Shown: positions 6,297 to 13,029, counted from the first letter of the stretch. The stretch is DNA of 64,000 bases from an uncultured Actinomycetota bacterium (GCA_964415365.1 CAYPYW010000010.1:11071-75070); one strand, 5' to 3'. Notes: generated by a model not told the origin, from the letters alone. A program made the numbers and translations.

Positions 6297-7265
6297 TTGA
6301 GGATATTGTTTTTTGGCTCTTCCGAAATTTCAGTTCCATTCCTGGAAGAAATATATAAATCAAAACATGGCATATCTCTTGTTGTGGCTACTGTTGATAA
6401 GCCGGCAGGAAGGGGAAGAAAAACTTTACCTAATGTAGTAAAAAGCAAGGCTATTGAGTTGGGAATTGATTATATTCAGATTGAGAAGTTTGACAATATT
6501 TTTTTTGATAAGTTTACAAAATTAGGGTTTGACGGAATTGTAGTGGTTTCTTTCGGAAAGATATTTCCTGAAAAAATATTTAAATTGACATCTGCCCGGT
6601 GGTTAAATGTCCACCCTTCACTTCTGCCGCGGTATAGAGGTCCAACACCTGTTATAAGTACGCTCCTGAATGGTGATGAGGTAGGAGGGATCAGCATAAT
6701 GGATGTAGTGCCTGAGGTAGATGCAGGTGGTATATATGCTCAGGTGAAATTCGGTGTTGGAGAAGACGATAACCGTGACAGCCTGGAGAGAAAGATAATA
6801 GAATTTGGAAAATCCCTTCTGATTACGGTACTTGACCTTGTAGAGAGTGAGAGGATTAAGTCATATCCCCAGGATGAGGAAAGTGTGACTTATAGTCACA
6901 AAATTACAAAAGATGACCTGAAAATCAACTGGGGCAGCAGTGCGATGGAAATAGTTAATAAAATCAGAGCCTTCAGCTCAAGTCCAGGTGCCTATTTTCT
7001 GTGGAAGGATTCAAGAATTAAAATTCTTAAGGCAAGTGTCTTAGATAGAGCTATAACCAATGCCTGTCAGGATAAACTTAAAATTGATAAAAGTAAGAAG
7101 GATGGTTTTGTAGTTGAGGCTGATAAAAAAGCAGGTATTCTGGTTAAGTGTAATAAAGATGAAATAATAAAGATTGAGTTGCTCCAGCCTCAGGATAAAA
7201 AAACAATGTCTTCGGTGGATTTTATTAACGGATACGGACTTAAAGCTGGTGAAAGTTTTGAATGA
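6297..7265 (+). CDS. fmt: methionyl-tRNA formyltransferase
   Basis: TTG start with AGGAG RBS; HPSLLPRYRGPTP motif; def-fmt synteny. Confidence 0.9.
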   Translation: MRILFFGSSEISVPFLEEIYKSKHGISLVVATVDKPAGRGRKTLPNVVKSKAIELGIDYIQIEKFDNIFFDKFTKLGFDGIVVVSFGKIFPEKIFKLTSARWLNVHPSLLPRYRGPTPVISTLLNGDEVGGISIMDVVPEVDAGGIYAQVKFGVGEDDNRDSLERKIIEFGKSLLITVLDLVESERIKSYPQDEESVTYSHKITKDDLKINWGSSAMEIVNKIRAFSSSPGAYFLWKDSRIKILKASVLDRAITNACQDKLKIDKSKKDGFVVEADKKAGILVKCNKDEIIKIELLQPQDKKTMSSVDFINGYGLKAGESFE

Positions 7266-8805
7266 AAGAAAAATCAAAAAGAGATCCGGAATCAATCCAC
7301 GCAAAATTGCCCTTCTTATCTTAATCCAGTATTTTAAAAAGAGGGGATCCTTAAAAGATATAATAAATAGCTGCCTTAAGAATTATGAACTGTCAAAGCT
7401 CGACAGGCGTTTTATCTTCAATATAGCCAAGGGTACGGTAAGATATTACCAGAAAATTGATTTCATACTTTCTTTATTTTCAAATAAAGATATAAAAGAT
7501 ATTGATTTTGTGATTCTTAATATACTGCGCATGGGGATTTTTCAGTTGATTTATATGAGTAAAATTCCCGATTATTCAGCGGTTAATGAAAGTGTCCAGC
7601 TGGCAAAGAAAAATGCTGGCGTGTCTTCTTCCAAATTCGTGAATGCGATACTGCGTAAAATTAGTTCAATCCCGGACATGGATTCGTTTATAGAAGGGGA
7701 AATTAAAAGGGTGGCAAAGGACGAAACTGACAGAATCAGTATAAACTACTCTTATCCCGGATGGCTCATAAAGTACTGGCTCGACTGTTATGGAAAGGAA
7801 AAAACTGTTCTAATCTGCAGGTCGCTTAATGAAAACCCGCATACTTACCTGAGATTTAATAAAGATAAGATTGCAAGGGAAGAATTGTTTAAGGAGTTAG
7901 GCGTAAAATCAATTGATGGAAAATACTACAGTCAAAATGTTAAAGTCATACATGAATCTGCATCGGATGATATTGAAACAGAAGGTGATAATAATGAACA
8001 ATTTGTATCGAAGCATAGTATATTAGAAGATGTCATAGAAGTTTCCACCGTTCAGGATATTTCGGGAACTGATGTTTATAAGAAAGGCCTGGTTTCGATT
8101 CAGGATATCTCTTCTCAAATAGCTGTAAAGTATTTTCTAAATCCTCTCGGAAGTGAAAAAGTACTGGATGTATGCGCTGCACCCGGCGGAAAGACTGCAC
8201 ATATTGCCGAGCTTGTCGGGAATGATGGAGAGGTAATATCGGTTGATATAAACAGGAAGAGGCTAAAAATATTGCAGGATAATCTGAAAAGGTTAGACAT
8301 AAAGAATGTAAGAATTATAGAAGCTGATGCGGCCGGGCAGAATTTCCTGGAAAGAAGCGAAGGTGCTAAAAATAAAAGAAAACCTGATAGTTACACGGGA
8401 TATTTTGATAAAATTTTAATCGATGCTCCATGCAGCGCTTTTGGGACGATTTCCAAGAATCCGGATGCAAAGTATAGTAAAACAATGGATGATGTAATAC
8501 GCCTTTCTGAAATGTCTTACAGGATGATGGTAAATTGTGATACTTATCTAAAAGCTGGCGGAAAACTTGTTTTTTATACCTGCACACTTTCACCCACAGA
8601 AAATCAACAGGTGATAGGGAAGTTTTTGGAGGAATTTAAAGGTAAATATGTTATCGGGAAGCAGGTCATTTCTGATGAGCTGATATCCGTTTTAGAACAT
8701 AAAAAAATTATGTTAGGACCACGAGAAAAAACCTGCCTTGAAATTATGCCCTATTATTTTGAAAGTGAAGGCGGCTTCGTCTGCAGCCTGATAAAACGGT
8801 CATGA
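7258..8805 (+). CDS. rsmB: 16S rRNA (cytosine967-C5)-methyltransferase RsmB/Sun with N-terminal NusB-like domain
   Basis: NusB-like N-term (INPRKIALLILIQYF), SAM MTase motifs (DVCAAPGGKT, IDAPCS), PUA-like C-term. Six-frame ORF opens at 7174 and overlaps fmt; start assigned to TTG 7258 with GGTGA RBS 7 nt upstream (GTG 7249 is an alternative). Confidence 0.85.
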   Translation: MNERKIKKRSGINPRKIALLILIQYFKKRGSLKDIINSCLKNYELSKLDRRFIFNIAKGTVRYYQKIDFILSLFSNKDIKDIDFVILNILRMGIFQLIYMSKIPDYSAVNESVQLAKKNAGVSSSKFVNAILRKISSIPDMDSFIEGEIKRVAKDETDRISINYSYPGWLIKYWLDCYGKEKTVLICRSLNENPHTYLRFNKDKIAREELFKELGVKSIDGKYYSQNVKVIHESASDDIETEGDNNEQFVSKHSILEDVIEVSTVQDISGTDVYKKGLVSIQDISSQIAVKYFLNPLGSEKVLDVCAAPGGKTAHIAELVGNDGEVISVDINRKRLKILQDNLKRLDIKNVRIIEADAAGQNFLERSEGAKNKRKPDSYTGYFDKILIDAPCSAFGTISKNPDAKYSKTMDDVIRLSEMSYRMMVNCDTYLKAGGKLVFYTCTLSPTENQQVIGKFLEEFKGKYVIGKQVISDELISVLEHKKIMLGPREKTCLEIMPYYFESEGGFVCSLIKRS

Positions 8806-8859
8806 AACTTTCCCCAAAACAGCAAATCCTGGGTAGTATTAATAACTAAAGGTTTAAAA

Positions 8860-8868
8860 TAATAAATC
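8860..8868. repeat. 9-bp direct repeat TAATAAATC, left target-site duplication of MITE-like element
   Basis: Exact 9-bp copy immediately outside both terminal inverted repeats (8860-8868 and 9098-9106). Confidence 0.45.
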
Positions 8869-9097
8869 GGAAGCATCTAAAATTCCGTGATAGCGATAAA
8901 AGTAAAACTTTAAGGGCCAGGATGGGTTATTTCAAAAACACGCAAGCTTTTACCCAGCGAGAAAGAGCTTGCTCAGTTTCAGGCTTCGCTCTCCTCTTAG
9001 AAGAGGAACCATGCCCGCTTTGCCTTCAAATGGTTTTCTTAAGTAACCCGTCCTCGCCCATTAATTTATTTTTTATCACGAATTTTTAGATGCTACC
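8869..9097. mobile_element. MITE-like non-autonomous element (229 bp) with imperfect ~24-bp terminal inverted repeats and extensive internal hairpin potential
   Basis: 5' end GGAAGCATCTAAAATTCCGTGATA (8869-8892) matches the reverse complement of 3' end TATCACGAATTTTTAGATGCTACC (9074-9097) apart from 2 mismatches and 1 indel; flanked by a 9-bp direct repeat; no coding capacity; internal pairs (GGCCAGGATGGGTTA / TAACCCGTCCTCGCC, CCTCTT/AAGAGG). Confidence 0.45.
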
Positions 9098-9106
9098 TAA
9101 TAAATC
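9098..9106. repeat. 9-bp direct repeat TAATAAATC, right target-site duplication
   Basis: Exact copy of 8860-8868. Confidence 0.45.
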
Positions 9107-9113
9107 AATTATA

Positions 9114-9141
9114 TTGAAATAATCCCATAATATGTTAACAT
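9114..9141 (+). promoter_or_regulatory. putative vapBC promoter (TTGAAA-16-TAACAT) overlapping a 10-bp perfect palindrome ATGTTAACAT (9132-9141), a candidate RHH antitoxin operator
   Basis: Seen in sequence; half-site TTAACAT repeated at 9172-9178 abutting the vapB start codon. Confidence 0.3.
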
Positions 9142-9176
9142 AGAATATACAATTAATAATTAACTAAAAATTTAAC

Positions 9177-9440
9177 ATGGATACAAAAAAAAGAACACAT
9201 GTCGTAGTTCCAGAAGAATTAGTGGAGGAAATAGACAGACTTTCGGGGAAAAGGAAGCGTAGCTGGTTTATAACTCAGGCTGTAAGAAAAGAGATACAGA
9301 GATTAAATTTCCTTGATGCAGTAAAGGAAACAGCAGGAACCTGGAATGATAAAGATCATCCTGAATTCAAAAAAGGAGTTGAAAGCTGGGTAAGACGTCT
9401 GAGGGATGAAGACAAAAAGAGATTGAAGGATATGTTGTAA
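9177..9440 (+). CDS. vapB: ribbon-helix-helix (CopG/VapB-type) antitoxin
   Basis: 87 aa; N-terminal RHH pattern THVVVPEELVEEIDRL...RSWFITQAVRKEI; stop overlaps toxin start (TAATGG). Confidence 0.75.
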   Translation: MDTKKRTHVVVPEELVEEIDRLSGKRKRSWFITQAVRKEIQRLNFLDAVKETAGTWNDKDHPEFKKGVESWVRRLRDEDKKRLKDML

Positions 9441-9823
9441 TGGCTGAATATCTACTGGATACAACAATAATAATTGAACATCTCCGTGGTAATACAAAAG
9501 TAAGTTCCTGTCTGGAAGAAATAGGAATTAAAGGTGACATTGCGGGATGCTGTTGTATAAATATTGCCGAAGTTTATACTGGGGTTAAGGAAAAGGAGAA
9601 AGAGAAAACAGACAGATTTATTGAAAGCCTTTATTACTTTGAAGTGACTAAAGAGGTTGCTAGATTGGCCGGGAAACTGAAGCAAAAGTATGCTGGGAAG
9701 GGTAAAACATTGTCAATCGCTGATGTAATTATTGCAGCTACAGCAATGGTGTATGGTTTAACATTGATTACGAAAAATGTAAAGCATTATCCTTTTCCAG
9801 AGCTAGAAATTAACGAAATCTAA
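9440..9823 (+). CDS. vapC: PIN-domain ribonuclease toxin VapC
   Basis: 127 aa; LLDTTIIIE (first acidic residue), IADVIIAATA, LITKNVKHY PIN motifs; 4-nt overlap with vapB. Confidence 0.8.
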   Translation: MAEYLLDTTIIIEHLRGNTKVSSCLEEIGIKGDIAGCCCINIAEVYTGVKEKEKEKTDRFIESLYYFEVTKEVARLAGKLKQKYAGKGKTLSIADVIIAATAMVYGLTLITKNVKHYPFPELEINEI

Positions 9824-9963: not shown

Positions 9964-12900
9964 ATGGAAGAGTTAAACAATATTGTTGCTTATTGGTATG
10001 ATTGTATCAAGAGTGAAGATATTTTAGAGAAAGATATTTCTATAAATGTCAGGAGTAAAGCAGTTCTTTACCCTTTTGATAATGATCCATTCATTTTTGA
10101 TAAAAGAGAAAATTCAGTCTTGGTGTCCGGAGACGGAAAATTGACTACTTTTTCAGAATATATCAGCATACGAGATTACGAGCCATATTATGGATATCCA
10201 ATTCTGTTTTATTTTGACGATAACTCAAAAAAATACTTGGTTGCACCTCTTTTTATAATTAAGGTGAAGTTCGTTGAAAAGGATAAGGGGCTACATCTAC
10301 AAAAAGATGAACAAAATCCTACTTGTGGAATTCAAGCATTTAGCAGGCTTGGATTTCGCACCGAGGAAATTGCTGATATAAGTCAACCTCTAGAAAGGTT
10401 ATTTAGAAGTGAGTTTTCTAATAGTAAAAATTTAGCAGAAAAATGTTTAGAGGTTATTCAAAAGGAAGCTGAGCTACCAATTAATGAGCCTATAGATCCT
10501 AATAGGTTAACCAACAGGGAAAAGATTTCGAAGAATATGGCTTCAGGTTTGTATAATAAAAGTTTAGTCTTTGCTGGTGAAAATACTGCTTATAACATTA
10601 GCCTGCTCCAAGACTTGCTAGAATTGAAAGAAAAAAATGATTTAGACAAGACTGCTCTTTCATTTATCCTTGAAAAGATATCTTCAGTTAAAGGAGTTGA
10701 AAAAACACCAATTCTTCCTTTTCCTTCAAATGAGTATCAAGTAAAAGCCCTACAGAATATATTTCAAAATAAGTTATCTGTCATTACCGGTCCACCTGGT
10801 ACTGGAAAAAGCCAATACATTTCAAATCTGTTGATTAACCTTTTTCTTGAAGGAAAGTCAGTTCTCTTTGTTAGTCATACTAATCCGGCAGTTGATGTTG
10901 TAAATGAAAAAATAAATCAACAATTTCGAAACTTGATGCTTCGGACAGGTAGAAAAGAATTTCGGCAAGAACTTAAAGGAAGGTTTAACGAATTAATTTT
11001 GGAGTCAGAAAGAAAACCATTGGAACAGGGACAGATAGGTCAAATTCAATCTATGTGGCAAACGATCTTGCAATATCGAGAAAGCTTGTTACAGCTAGAC
11101 CAGCTAGAACAACGATTTGAGGACAGTTATCTACCTTACAGTAATAGAAAAACTCCTTTTTACGAAGGTTATAATTTAGAACAATCATTTGAAGAATTAT
11201 CCCCCAATTTGAGGAAATTGGAAGTTATTAAAGAAAGATTGGAACATCTTAGGAGTAAAATAGAGAATAAACAATTTTCTTTATTGGAGAGAATTGTTCT
11301 CTTCTTATTTCCACATTATATTGAGAACAAAAAGGAAAGATTATTTTATAATTTGAGTCGTATTCTACCACTTAGTACTCTTAGGATTCTCCAGAATTCT
11401 ACGAAGCCTGCTCAGATTAGAAATTGGAACGACCAAGGATGGTTAAGACTGTCAGAATACCTTGAACTGTTAAAATACTTTTTCAAATTTGAAACAATCA
11501 GGCAGGAAATAGAAACTTTTCAACCCAGGGCGATTATTGAACAAAAAATTAGGAAGCTAGAAAAGGATTTTTGCGATGTTTCAAAAAGGTTTGTAAAGGA
11601 CATTTACATACAAAGAATGCTTGGGAAAGGTGAAAATGTTGGAAGGGTAAATTCATTTTTGTATCAAGTAGATTCTATTAGACCAAATGATGATGGTATC
11701 GATAGCTATTTATTTAAGGAAGCTCTTGATGCTTTAAAAATATGGTCATGTACTTTGAAATCAGTCAGAAGAACGTTTCCTCTAAGTCCTGGCATCTTTG
11801 ATTATGTAATTTTTGATGAGGCTTCACAGGTTGATCTACCCTCAGCAGCACCAGCTCTTTATAGAGCAAAAAGAGCTATTGTGGTTGGTGACCCTATGCA
11901 ACTTACGCATGTTGCTGGGTTAACCAGGGACATAGATAAGGGATTGGCTCGGATCCATGGACTAACGGAAAAGAAGAATATCTACCCTTCAAAGATAAGA
12001 TATTGCGATATTCCCCTTTATAGATCTGCAGAGAATTCTCTAAGTCATAAGCCCATACTGCTAATTAATCATTATCGGTCAGAAGACCAAATTATTGCTT
12101 TATGTAATCAGGCTTTTTATGGGGGGCATTTAAAAATAATGACCACTCTTGATTACGCCCGATACCCTAGCAGTTTACCATTAGGTATTCACTGGATTAA
12201 TTGTGAAGGTGAAGTTTTTAAACATCCTGCAGGGAGCAGAATAAATCGCGCTGAGGTCTTATTGGTAAATAAGGTTTTCCAAGATGTATTACAAGAAATA
12301 TCAGGGACAGATCTAAGTATAGGTATTGTCACTCCCTACTCTCGTCAACAGGACGCAATATACGAAAGAATTTCCCAATCAACATCGGCAGAACTTCTTG
12401 AGAGACATAATGTAAGAATCCTTACCGCTCATAAATTTCAGGGGTCTGAAAAAGACATAATGATATTTTCTTTAGTTTTGGCATCCCGCGGAAATGGAAG
12501 TAGTGATCGATGGTATAATATTTACCCTCAAATTTTGAATGTAGCCTTATCGCGGGCGAAGTATCTTTTATATATTGTAGGAGATAGAAACTTTTGTCAC
12601 GAACATTCCTGTTATAAAGAGCAAGATTGTGTACTAAAGCGATTGGTTAAAACTTATGACGATATTAAGAAGCAGGAAAAAGCTGAGGAATATACATTGT
12701 TTGAAAAGTTTGACTCTCCGACTGAAAGATTTCTTTTTGAGAAATTACAGAAGATAGATTTTGGGCGTCTTAAGTATAAATTGATTCCCAAGTTGGTCGT
12801 TAAGAGATATACACTAGATTTCGCACTTCTAGGTAAGAAAAAGATAGATATTGAGTGTGATGGCTACCAGCATACAATTATCGAAGGTTTCCCGGTATTG

Positions 12901-13029
12901 GAGGATGTCGCAAGAGACTATTTTTTGAAAGAGGAAGGGTGGGAAGTTTTTAGATTTCCTAATCATAGAATTTTGTCTCAAACTGATATTGTGATCGAAG
13001 ATATTTTAAATTTGTTGAAGGAGCCATAA
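9964..13029 (+). CDS. large multidomain protein: N-terminal DUF4011-like region, Dna2/Upf1-family SF1 helicase (AAA_11/AAA_12) and C-terminal DUF559/Vsr-like (REase_MTES_1575-type) PD-(D/E)xK endonuclease; candidate single-gene defence protein
   Basis: Walker A VITGPPGTGKSQY; motif II VIFDEASQVDL; VVGDPMQL; motif V/VI ILTAHKFQGSEKDIMIFSLV and ALSRAKYLLYIVGD; C-term LDFAL...IDIECDGYQH...DVARDYFLKEEGWEVFRFPNH matches DUF559/Vsr-like pattern; no SD; AT-richer than neighbours (about 28% vs about 39% GC in hand-counted 120-nt samples). Confidence 0.8.
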   Translation: MEELNNIVAYWYDCIKSEDILEKDISINVRSKAVLYPFDNDPFIFDKRENSVLVSGDGKLTTFSEYISIRDYEPYYGYPILFYFDDNSKKYLVAPLFIIKVKFVEKDKGLHLQKDEQNPTCGIQAFSRLGFRTEEIADISQPLERLFRSEFSNSKNLAEKCLEVIQKEAELPINEPIDPNRLTNREKISKNMASGLYNKSLVFAGENTAYNISLLQDLLELKEKNDLDKTALSFILEKISSVKGVEKTPILPFPSNEYQVKALQNIFQNKLSVITGPPGTGKSQYISNLLINLFLEGKSVLFVSHTNPAVDVVNEKINQQFRNLMLRTGRKEFRQELKGRFNELILESERKPLEQGQIGQIQSMWQTILQYRESLLQLDQLEQRFEDSYLPYSNRKTPFYEGYNLEQSFEELSPNLRKLEVIKERLEHLRSKIENKQFSLLERIVLFLFPHYIENKKERLFYNLSRILPLSTLRILQNSTKPAQIRNWNDQGWLRLSEYLELLKYFFKFETIRQEIETFQPRAIIEQKIRKLEKDFCDVSKRFVKDIYIQRMLGKGENVGRVNSFLYQVDSIRPNDDGIDSYLFKEALDALKIWSCTLKSVRRTFPLSPGIFDYVIFDEASQVDLPSAAPALYRAKRAIVVGDPMQLTHVAGLTRDIDKGLARIHGLTEKKNIYPSKIRYCDIPLYRSAENSLSHKPILLINHYRSEDQIIALCNQAFYGGHLKIMTTLDYARYPSSLPLGIHWINCEGEVFKHPAGSRINRAEVLLVNKVFQDVLQEISGTDLSIGIVTPYSRQQDAIYERISQSTSAELLERHNVRILTAHKFQGSEKDIMIFSLVLASRGNGSSDRWYNIYPQILNVALSRAKYLLYIVGDRNFCHEHSCYKEQDCVLKRLVKTYDDIKKQEKAEEYTLFEKFDSPTERFLFEKLQKIDFGRLKYKLIPKLVVKRYTLDFALLGKKKIDIECDGYQHTIIEGFPVLEDVARDYFLKEEGWEVFRFPNHRILSQTDIVIEDILNLLKEP

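Follow-up and report, generated by a model that had tools for sequence, protein, structure and literature searches.

A probable non-autonomous MITE with the ends of an ISLre2/ISKra4-group insertion sequence, inserted upstream of a vapBC promoter in an uncultured Actinomycetota bacterium

Overall organization of the element

Here we describe a 229-bp element at positions 8869-9097 of a 64,000-nucleotide stretch of DNA (hereafter the window; 36% G+C) from an uncultured Actinomycetota bacterium (GCA_964415365.1 CAYPYW010000010.1:11071-75070). With a probability that we put at about 0.93, it is a non-autonomous miniature inverted-repeat transposable element (MITE) that carries the ends of a 1378-bp insertion sequence (IS) of the UPF0236 ISLre2/ISKra4 group and is inserted 16 bp upstream of the -35 box of a vapBC toxin and antitoxin gene pair. 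The element is shorter than 500 bp, has no transposase gene, ends in terminal inverted repeats (TIRs), is flanked by a target-site duplication (TSD) that varies from copy to copy, is present in multiple copies, has an empty counterpart site in a relative and shares its ends with an autonomous element. A transposase-mobilized MITE with TIRs and a 9-bp duplication had been proposed in an initial annotation made from the window sequence alone; the many copies, the empty site, the autonomous IS and the family-typical targeting described below bear this proposal out.

Direct reading places the element between two exact copies of TAATAAATC (Table 1), as initially annotated. The flanking match stops at nine bases, the tenth base being different, and the 9-mer occurs only four times on the plus strand of the 64 kb. 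The first base of the duplication is 55 nt past the stop codon of rsmB, in agreement with the distance first given. The left TIR was compared with the reverse complement (GGTAGCATCTAAAAATTCGTGATA) of the right end, which reads TATCACGAATTTTTAGATGCTACC on the plus strand (9074-9097): 21 of the 24 positions agree, with three differences and no gap. The earlier description of about 24-bp TIRs with '2 mismatches and 1 indel' amounts to the same 3/24 substitutions, read with a gap. The TIR core pattern (AGCATCTAAAAWTYCGTGATA, also used for the scans described below) has two matches in the window, against 0.04 expected by chance.

Further inward, the arms form two inverted repeats, I1 (8869-8905/9061-9097) and I2 (8899-8938/9035-9074), so that complementarity reaches about 70 nt into the element from each end. 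The predicted fold of the plus strand is a long rod whose tip is branched (-83.6 kcal/mol; z = -7.7 relative to shuffled sequences), and that of the minus strand has the same shape (z = -6.2); the rod-like shape probably reflects the extent of the inverted repeats. The interior long-range complementarity and small hairpins reported initially were thus recovered, both as the I1 and I2 arms and in the predicted fold. The statement that the element contains no open reading frame (ORF) needs correction in its letter, as a 55-codon ATG ORF is present (8922-9089). This ORF had no match in a Pfam search and is broken by 1-2-nt indels (frameshifts) in other copies of a 53-copy alignment, so the non-coding character of the element still stands.

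Table 1 Features of the element and its surroundings in the window, and other miniatures with the same ends.
Feature	Location	Strand	Remarks
Left copy of 9-bp TSD, TAATAAATC	8860..8868	.	Direct reading; single copy at the empty site in L122
229-bp MITE	8869..9097	+	IS-left-type end (GGA tip) on the left and IS-right-type end on the right, as the plus strand reads
Left TIR, GGAAGCATCTAAAATTCCGTGATA	8869..8892	+	Matches the left end of the L110 full-length IS at 24/24 positions
Left subterminal arm ('X' module) and inner-stem arm	8893..8938	+	Pairs with 9035-9073; inverted repeats I1 and I2; compensatory changes across copies
Terminator-like core hairpin	8929..8974	-	Stem 8942-8951/8963-8972, then GTGTTTTTG on the minus strand
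Second small core hairpin, TCCTCT-TAGA-AGAGGA	8992..9007	+	Predicted fold; pair 147:152 UA->CG in 13 copies
Right inner-stem and subterminal arm ('Y' module)	9035..9073	+	Inverted repeats; copy alignment
Right TIR	9074..9097	-	Reverse complement GGTAGCATCTAAAAATTCGTGATA; IS-right (GTT-tip) type, three substitutions
Right copy of 9-bp TSD, TAATAAATC	9098..9106	.	Direct reading
vapBC sigma-70-type promoter	9114..9141	+	Promoter scan; conserved in L122 and L123
vapB-like antitoxin gene (9177-9440, 87 aa) and PIN-domain toxin gene (9440-9823), overlapping	9177..9823	+	Pfam PIN; same pair after rsmB in L122 and L123
rsmB (16S rRNA m5C967 methyltransferase), upstream neighbour outside the element	7249..8805	+	Pfam NusB and Methyltr_RsmB-F; 518-aa product
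Miniatures of about 190 bp	L008:6108-6297, L084, L087, L074		Same TIRs
Miniatures of 134-137 bp	L020:3909-4042, L080, L065:3209-3345		Same TIRs
Miniature of 336 bp	L065:1825-2160		Same TIRs

An empty site in a close relative

The closest relatives with usable contigs were fetched by means of their RsmB proteins. In one of these, L122 (RsmB 73% identical), rsmB is directly followed by the same pair of an 87-aa protein and a PIN-domain protein. The spacer between rsmB and vapB (...GATTTTAAAATAATAAATCCTATTGCATTGACATAATCCCATAATATGTTAACAT...) contains a single TAATAAATC, lacks the element and leads into the conserved vapB promoter region; the junction at the empty site reads ...TTTTAAAATAATAAATCCTATTGCATTGACATAATCCCATAATATGTTAACAT. 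Relative to L122, the window therefore carries a clean 238-bp insertion (229 + 9), and at the level of sequence comparison this empty site is the classical proof of insertion.

Copies in related genomes

A scan for the TIR core pattern in species-representative genomes (one per species, the source genome not being among them) returned nine contigs, eight of which come from five Actinomycetota metagenome-assembled genomes (MAGs), including three contigs of one MAG. The ninth, from a cyanobacterial MAG (L003), has only a 30-nt match within unrelated sequence and was taken as a chance hit. The same scan of JGI metagenomes yielded 111 loci; in the viral contigs searched, neither the TIR nor the core was present. 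When the fetched loci were searched by blastn with the 229-bp element, about 80 full-length copies were found at 72-90% identity, up to four per contig, and 53 of 53 aligned non-redundant copies are intergenic, between long ORFs. The element thus occurs with many different flanks in related genomes and metagenomes, which is the outcome that the BLASTN comparison suggested in the initial annotation was meant to look for. A single copy conserved at the orthologous site, or copies without a 9-mer repeat, had been named there as speaking against mobility; the element is neither single-copy nor conserved at the orthologous site, and other copies carry 9-mers of their own.

Duplications were counted for 64 non-redundant TIR-bounded elements, comprising MITEs of all size classes and three full-length IS copies. 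Exact 9-bp duplications flank 24 of them, 9-bp duplications with one mismatch a further seven, and exact 8-bp duplications nine; the duplicated sequences are AT-rich and nearly all distinct. The other size classes (134-137, about 190 and 336 bp; Table 1) share only the ends with the 229-bp element, and one transposase appears to serve several MITE families. Several of these other-length miniatures carry 9-bp duplications, and the interior of the L008 miniature, the only one read, is unrelated and AT-rich. One TIR pair 2.5 kb apart, in L022, was considered as a full-length IS and rejected: it consists of a MITE and, beyond a host UvrD-type helicase gene, a separate solo end.

Two Logan contigs, SRR14802574_207804 (L001) and SRR14802574_314135 (L126), are 100% identical to the window where compared. 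The former starts at window position 9018 and the latter ends at 8897, so both break inside the element; this is how assemblies behave at repeats and gives indirect support for multiple copies.

The parent insertion sequence

The first clue to a parent came from L007, in which a TIR stub is followed by 78 codons of a transposase C terminus and a right TIR. The encoded peptide matches the NCBIfam models ISKra4 and ISLre2 (E about 1e-9), and a tblastn search of the fetched loci with it yielded five full-length IS copies of 1377-1379 bp (L054, L055, L064, L069 and L110). These copies carry the same ends as the MITE, and their hosts are related uncultured Actinomycetota (Humimicrobiaceae/Hydromicrobium-like in some sources). 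The IS left end reads GGAAGCATCTA(A/T)(A/T)ATTC(C/T)GTGAT..., with the L110 copy identical to the left TIR of the window, and the right end reads ...TATCACGGAATTTTAGATGCTAAC. Between them lies a single ORF of about 423 aa, the stop codon of which is located inside the right TIR.

The transposase passes the cut-off of Pfam UPF0236 (68.4 bits; cut-off 24.3). It scores 150.9 bits with NCBIfam ISLre2 (NF033529; curated cut-off 200), 143.7-147.1 bits with ISKra4 (NF033572; curated cut-off 205) and 81 bits with ISH6 (curated cut-off 240), reaching none of these three thresholds. The NCBIfam matches listed for it are ISLre2, ISKra4, ISH6, a Mycoplasma integrative and conjugative element (ICE) family and, weakly, ISL3; the IS256 model is not among them. 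An IS256 or IS4-like origin, suggested in the initial annotation, accordingly gives way to an ISLre2/ISKra4-like parent, IS256 belonging only to the same superfamily and IS4 being unrelated. Transposase relatives in a large protein collection either lack a name or are listed as 'UPF0236 family protein', and the close ones (>73% identity) are mostly on contigs of about 1.4 kb. A tblastn search of plasmids with the transposase found no close named IS; the annotated ISLre2/ISKra4 transposases encoded there are 22-26% identical (annotated ISLre2, 22%). By sequence comparison, the parent is a deep branch of the Mutator-like ISLre2/ISKra4 clade and not a member of it by curated thresholds.

Similarity between the IS and the MITE ends about 25-45 nt from the tips, and the interior of about 180 bp is unrelated to the IS. 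Because the similarity is confined to the termini, we rejected the idea that the MITE is a simple internal deletion derivative of the IS.

Promoter targeting

Prokaryotic Mutator-like elements generate direct repeats of 8 or 9 bp. For members of the TnGBS/ISLre2 group, and for some of the ISKra4 elements, the insertion site is 15-17 bp ahead of the -35 box of a sigma-A promoter, with a peak at 16 bp; in TnGBS/ISLre2 the right inverted repeat (IR-right) is promoter-proximal, the orientation being set by the asymmetry of the two inverted repeats (IRs) (Guerillot et al. 2014, PMC3942029). A transposase signature motif, with a conserved Asp located between domains N1 and N2, has been linked to this targeting (PMC3942029). 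We scanned 70 nt of flank at each of 159 non-redundant element ends for outward-reading consensus promoters. The predicted -35 box lies 16 bp from the element end in 21 cases, 15 bp in seven and 17 bp in five, and every other offset was observed 0-3 times; in all, 33 of the 56 outward predictions are at 15-17 bp (binomial p = 4e-23). A peak was absent from both controls of the scan, inward-reading and shuffled. The two ends behave differently: a promoter at 15-17 bp was called for 21 of 59 GTT-tip (IS-right) ends and for 3 of 48 GGA-tip ends (Fisher p = 3e-4). Two full-length IS copies (L064 and L069) follow the 16-bp rule.

The window copy fits this rule exactly, with its IS-right-type end on the vapBC side. 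The sixteen bases TAATAAATCAATTATA separate the element end (9097) from the -35 box, which begins exactly 16 bp past the element. The vapBC promoter consists of a -35 box TTGAAA (9114-9119), a 16-nt spacer with a TG, and a -10 box TAACAT (9136-9141), ahead of the vapB start at 9177. The promoter region is nearly identical in the window (9114-9142), L122 (about 9655-9690) and L123 (6636-6665), despite an RsmB identity of 75% or less, and a perfect 12-bp palindrome, TATGTTAACATA (window 9131-9142), spans the vapB -10 box; it is probably the operator through which the antitoxin regulates its own synthesis. With the core promoter and the palindromic operator intact, the insertion was probably near-neutral for vapBC.

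The same promoter has been reached by an IS in another relative. In L123 (GCA_030665745.1, DAOUZF010000015.1), a decayed IS at 6440-6621, which retains the transposase C terminus and the right TIR and lacks a left end, stops 16 bp ahead of the -35 box (TTGACA) of the orthologous vapB promoter. The vapB promoter was thus hit independently, or anciently, in this relative, as promoter targeting predicts. A GGDEF/HD gene lies between rsmB and this IS remnant. In a further relative, L053 (fakA and rsmD 54-57% identical to those of the window), fakA is preceded by a consensus TTGACA promoter, and a TIR end (about 2604-2660) is found 16 bp upstream of it, a further case of the rule at a gene that the window also has.

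Core hairpin and inversion isomers

Folding each of 51 copies individually showed that a hairpin beside a T-run is kept in most of them, with a stem of 9-14 bp followed by GTGTTTTT. The stem occurs in compensatory versions (GCAAGC/GCTTGC, GCAGGC/GCCTGC, GCGGTC/GACTGC and GCTGGC/GCCAAC). An automated terminator scan was negative for the window copy because of its loop limit of 8 nt. The rod, too, is kept across 53 copies, with double changes at 16 of 34 consensus pairs (for example, one TIR pair is C-G in 23 copies and U-A in 20). Among copies that are 72-90% identical overall, the core is the best-conserved part of the interior.

Nothing in the whole window reached the gathering threshold of Rfam 15, and at E <= 10 the region 8700-9300 gave only noise (E >= 0.85). 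This was one of the checks put forward initially; no described RNA family was met with. No convincing internal promoter was seen in the window copy, either by eye or in a single scan.

The copies include inversion isomers. When they are oriented by their core, every one of the four possible combinations of the two subterminal arm modules, X (GCAATAAAAGTAAAACTTTAAGG) and Y (AAAAAATAAATTAATGG), with the GGA and GTT tips is found (alignment A3, 53 copies; for example, L049:7175-7403, L022:5512-5741, L013:265-500 and L081:3584-3813), with inversion breakpoints within the perfect inner stem GGCCAGGATGGGTTATT. This suggests that the segments between the nested inverted repeats have inverted repeatedly.

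We considered whether the core has a directional role at the targeted promoter and dropped the idea, as its orientation is unbiased (10 against 7). With respect to the flanking genes, the core strand reads in the direction of both neighbours in 23 cases and against them in 9, a weak trend in a set that still includes a few duplicates; such a ratio could result if polar, terminator-sense insertions between genes transcribed together were selected against. Free-standing cores without TIRs were also sought among the loci, all of which had been selected by their TIRs and so define the scope of that search; the apparent core-only blast matches proved to be decayed MITEs that keep one TIR.

Proposed route of insertion and alternative explanations

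We envisage that the IS transposase, supplied in trans, would have bound the two element ends and cut out or copied the element, and that insertion at a 9-bp staggered cut would have duplicated TAATAAATC. Once in place, the core hairpin may stop transcription that enters from one side, with no directional role evident. Several points weigh against this account. Transposition in trans is something we infer from the sequence; the copies and the transposase gene come from relatives, the source genome lying outside the scanned representatives. Within the 64-kb window the element is single-copy: blastn and a TIR search allowing three mismatches returned only its own two arms. The nearest copies elsewhere are only 90% identical, and the right TIR departs from the IS-right consensus at three positions, which makes present-day mobility uncertain. 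A promoter at 15-17 bp was called by the simple consensus scan for only about one-fifth of the ends. Finally, as the parent transposase scores below both curated cut-offs and shares only 22-26% identity with annotated transposases, the family assignment holds at the level of the superfamily or clade.

An internal deletion of a full-length IS once sited here could leave a small remnant, and such remnants are seen: L007 and L059 keep a TIR stub and 78 transposase codons, and L123 keeps the transposase C terminus and right TIR at the very same vapBC promoter. The interior of the window element, however, has no IS similarity beyond its terminal 25-45 nt, and this 220-240-bp unit is present, with duplications of its own, at about 80 different sites, showing that it spread as a unit; decay in situ is scarcely credible. 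The initial annotation had the element mark the left boundary of an island. An att-like scar bordering a genomic island with vapBC and the helicase gene would be in keeping with the variability of the region downstream of rsmB among relatives, and with the absence of the SF1-helicase/DUF559 gene (9964-13029) between vapC and fakA in L123. Yet vapBC follows rsmB in both L122 and L123 without the element, which must then have landed in a pre-existing rsmB-vapB spacer. The empty site, moreover, records a clean 238-bp insertion into that spacer, and the window has no second copy or matching repeat beyond the variable region. The boundary claim was consequently abandoned, and we regard this reading as very improbable.

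The fold of the element raises a different set of questions. A stand-alone structured non-coding RNA or cis-regulatory RNA (an rsmB 3' untranslated region or a vapBC leader), with the 9-mers a coincidence, would agree with the very stable predicted fold (z = -7.7 and -6.2 for the plus and minus strands) and with the compensatory changes in its stems. But the element is missing from the orthologous site of L122, where both neighbours are kept; dozens of copies, each flanked by an 8-9-bp duplication of its own, are found beside unrelated genes; a transposase-encoding IS has identical ends; the 134-, 190- and 336-bp classes share nothing except the ends; and Rfam holds no match. An independent RNA gene is excluded by the copies, the empty site, the parent IS and the choice of target, and its probability is negligible. 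The small-RNA alternative of the initial annotation likewise lost ground, as there was no Rfam match and no internal promoter by eye or in the one scan of the window copy, and because the core is found in either orientation. A MITE with an added role in transcription, its core acting as an intrinsic terminator or as the end of a small RNA and hence as a mobile transcription stop, deserves more weight, although we still think it unlikely. In its favour, the core is the best-conserved interior part and is not IS-derived, the hairpin and GTGTTTTT persist in most copies with many compensatory stem variants, the second core hairpin also covaries, and the core tends to be co-directional with both neighbours (23 against 9). 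This must be set against the lack of an Rfam family and of a convincing internal promoter (window copy, by eye and one scan), and against the finding that the core lies either way round with respect to the arms and also to the targeted promoter (10 against 7), which speaks against a directional function at that promoter. Arm-to-arm correction or inversion can, furthermore, produce covariation in palindromic DNA without selection on RNA. More speculative still, and distinctly less probable, is the idea that the core of about 125 nt is a captured and selectively maintained terminator or small-RNA module, making the MITE a promoter-placed mobile insulator in which inversion of the core flips the side that is blocked. 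If so, it would amount to a simple DNA-inversion switch across dozens of promoters in these uncultured Actinomycetota.

Comparison with known mobile elements

Bacterial MITEs, such as the Correia elements of Neisseria, ERIC, RUP and BOX, are 100-300 bp long, have TIRs and a target duplication, are intergenic and present in high copy number, and fold into hairpins. They are mobilized in trans by the transposase of a cognate IS, and some have terminator or promoter activity. The window element resembles them in size range, TIRs, target duplication, intergenic copies and hairpin fold. It differs in having a sequence and a parent IS of its own, with an interior that is not an IS deletion derivative; in an insertion site set by a fixed 16-bp distance from promoters and not by a short target motif; and in the occurrence of inversion isomers among its copies.

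Among Mutator-like families, the parent is most like ISLre2/TnGBS (p-MULT 3): it is a small IS (1378 bp) with one transposase ORF of the Pfam UPF0236 family and ISLre2 as its best NCBIfam match, 8-9-bp direct repeats, two asymmetric IRs, and insertion 16 bp upstream of a sigma-A -35 box with IR-right on the promoter side. It departs from ISLre2 in its score (150.9 against a cut-off of 200) and in its identity of about 22% to an annotated ISLre2 transposase, and its hosts are uncultured low-GC Actinomycetota rather than Firmicutes, Fusobacteria or Synergistetes. The window element, moreover, is a gene-less derivative, and none is described for the ISLre2/TnGBS group in PMC3942029 or in the literature searched. 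ISKra4 (p-MULT 4) scores nearly as high (143.7 bits), some of its members target sigma-A promoters and make 8-9-bp repeats (PMC3942029), and Actinobacteria are among its reported hosts. The parent transposase nevertheless misses the curated cut-off (205). In ISKra4 elements that target promoters, the IRs are near-perfect and insertion occurs in either orientation (PMC3942029), whereas one end is strongly favoured here (21/59 against 3/48) and the IS tips (GGA versus GTT) and subterminal sequences differ. IS256 (p-MULT 1) belongs to the same Mutator-like DDE superfamily and makes 8-9-bp duplications, but inserts without promoter preference (PMC3942029).

The MITE and its parent, from an uncultured actinomycetotal lineage, form a previously unnamed family of the known Mutator-like ISLre2/ISKra4 clade; the novelty is modest. 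Their distribution extends the fixed-distance promoter targeting of TnGBS/ISLre2 to a divergent UPF0236 clade in uncultured low-GC Actinomycetota and to miniature derivatives. Each IS-right-type end would point to a sigma-70-type promoter 16 bp away, offering an experiment-independent means of promoter annotation in these lineages. As the family breaks assemblies, masking or flagging it in annotation is advisable. At the window locus itself, we read the element as a benign insertion upstream of an intact vapBC promoter, neither an island border nor an RNA gene.

Neighbouring genes

The nearby genes are all on the plus strand, in the order priA, def, fmt, rsmB, the element, the antitoxin-like gene, the PIN toxin gene, an SF1 helicase gene, fakA and rsmD. 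A scan of the window for tRNA and tmRNA genes found none, so this is not a tRNA-linked integration site. RsmB homologues, where named, belong to Actinobacteria/Actinomycetota, 'Candidatus Humimicrobiaceae' or 'Candidatus Hydromicrobium'. Every relative examined has a different region downstream of rsmB. Between vapC and fakA, the window encodes a 1021-aa SF1 helicase (AAA_11/AAA_12) with a C-terminal DUF559 endonuclease-like domain (9964-13029); in L123 the vapC-fakA spacer (717 bp) has no called gene, which marks the helicase gene as a locally variable insert.

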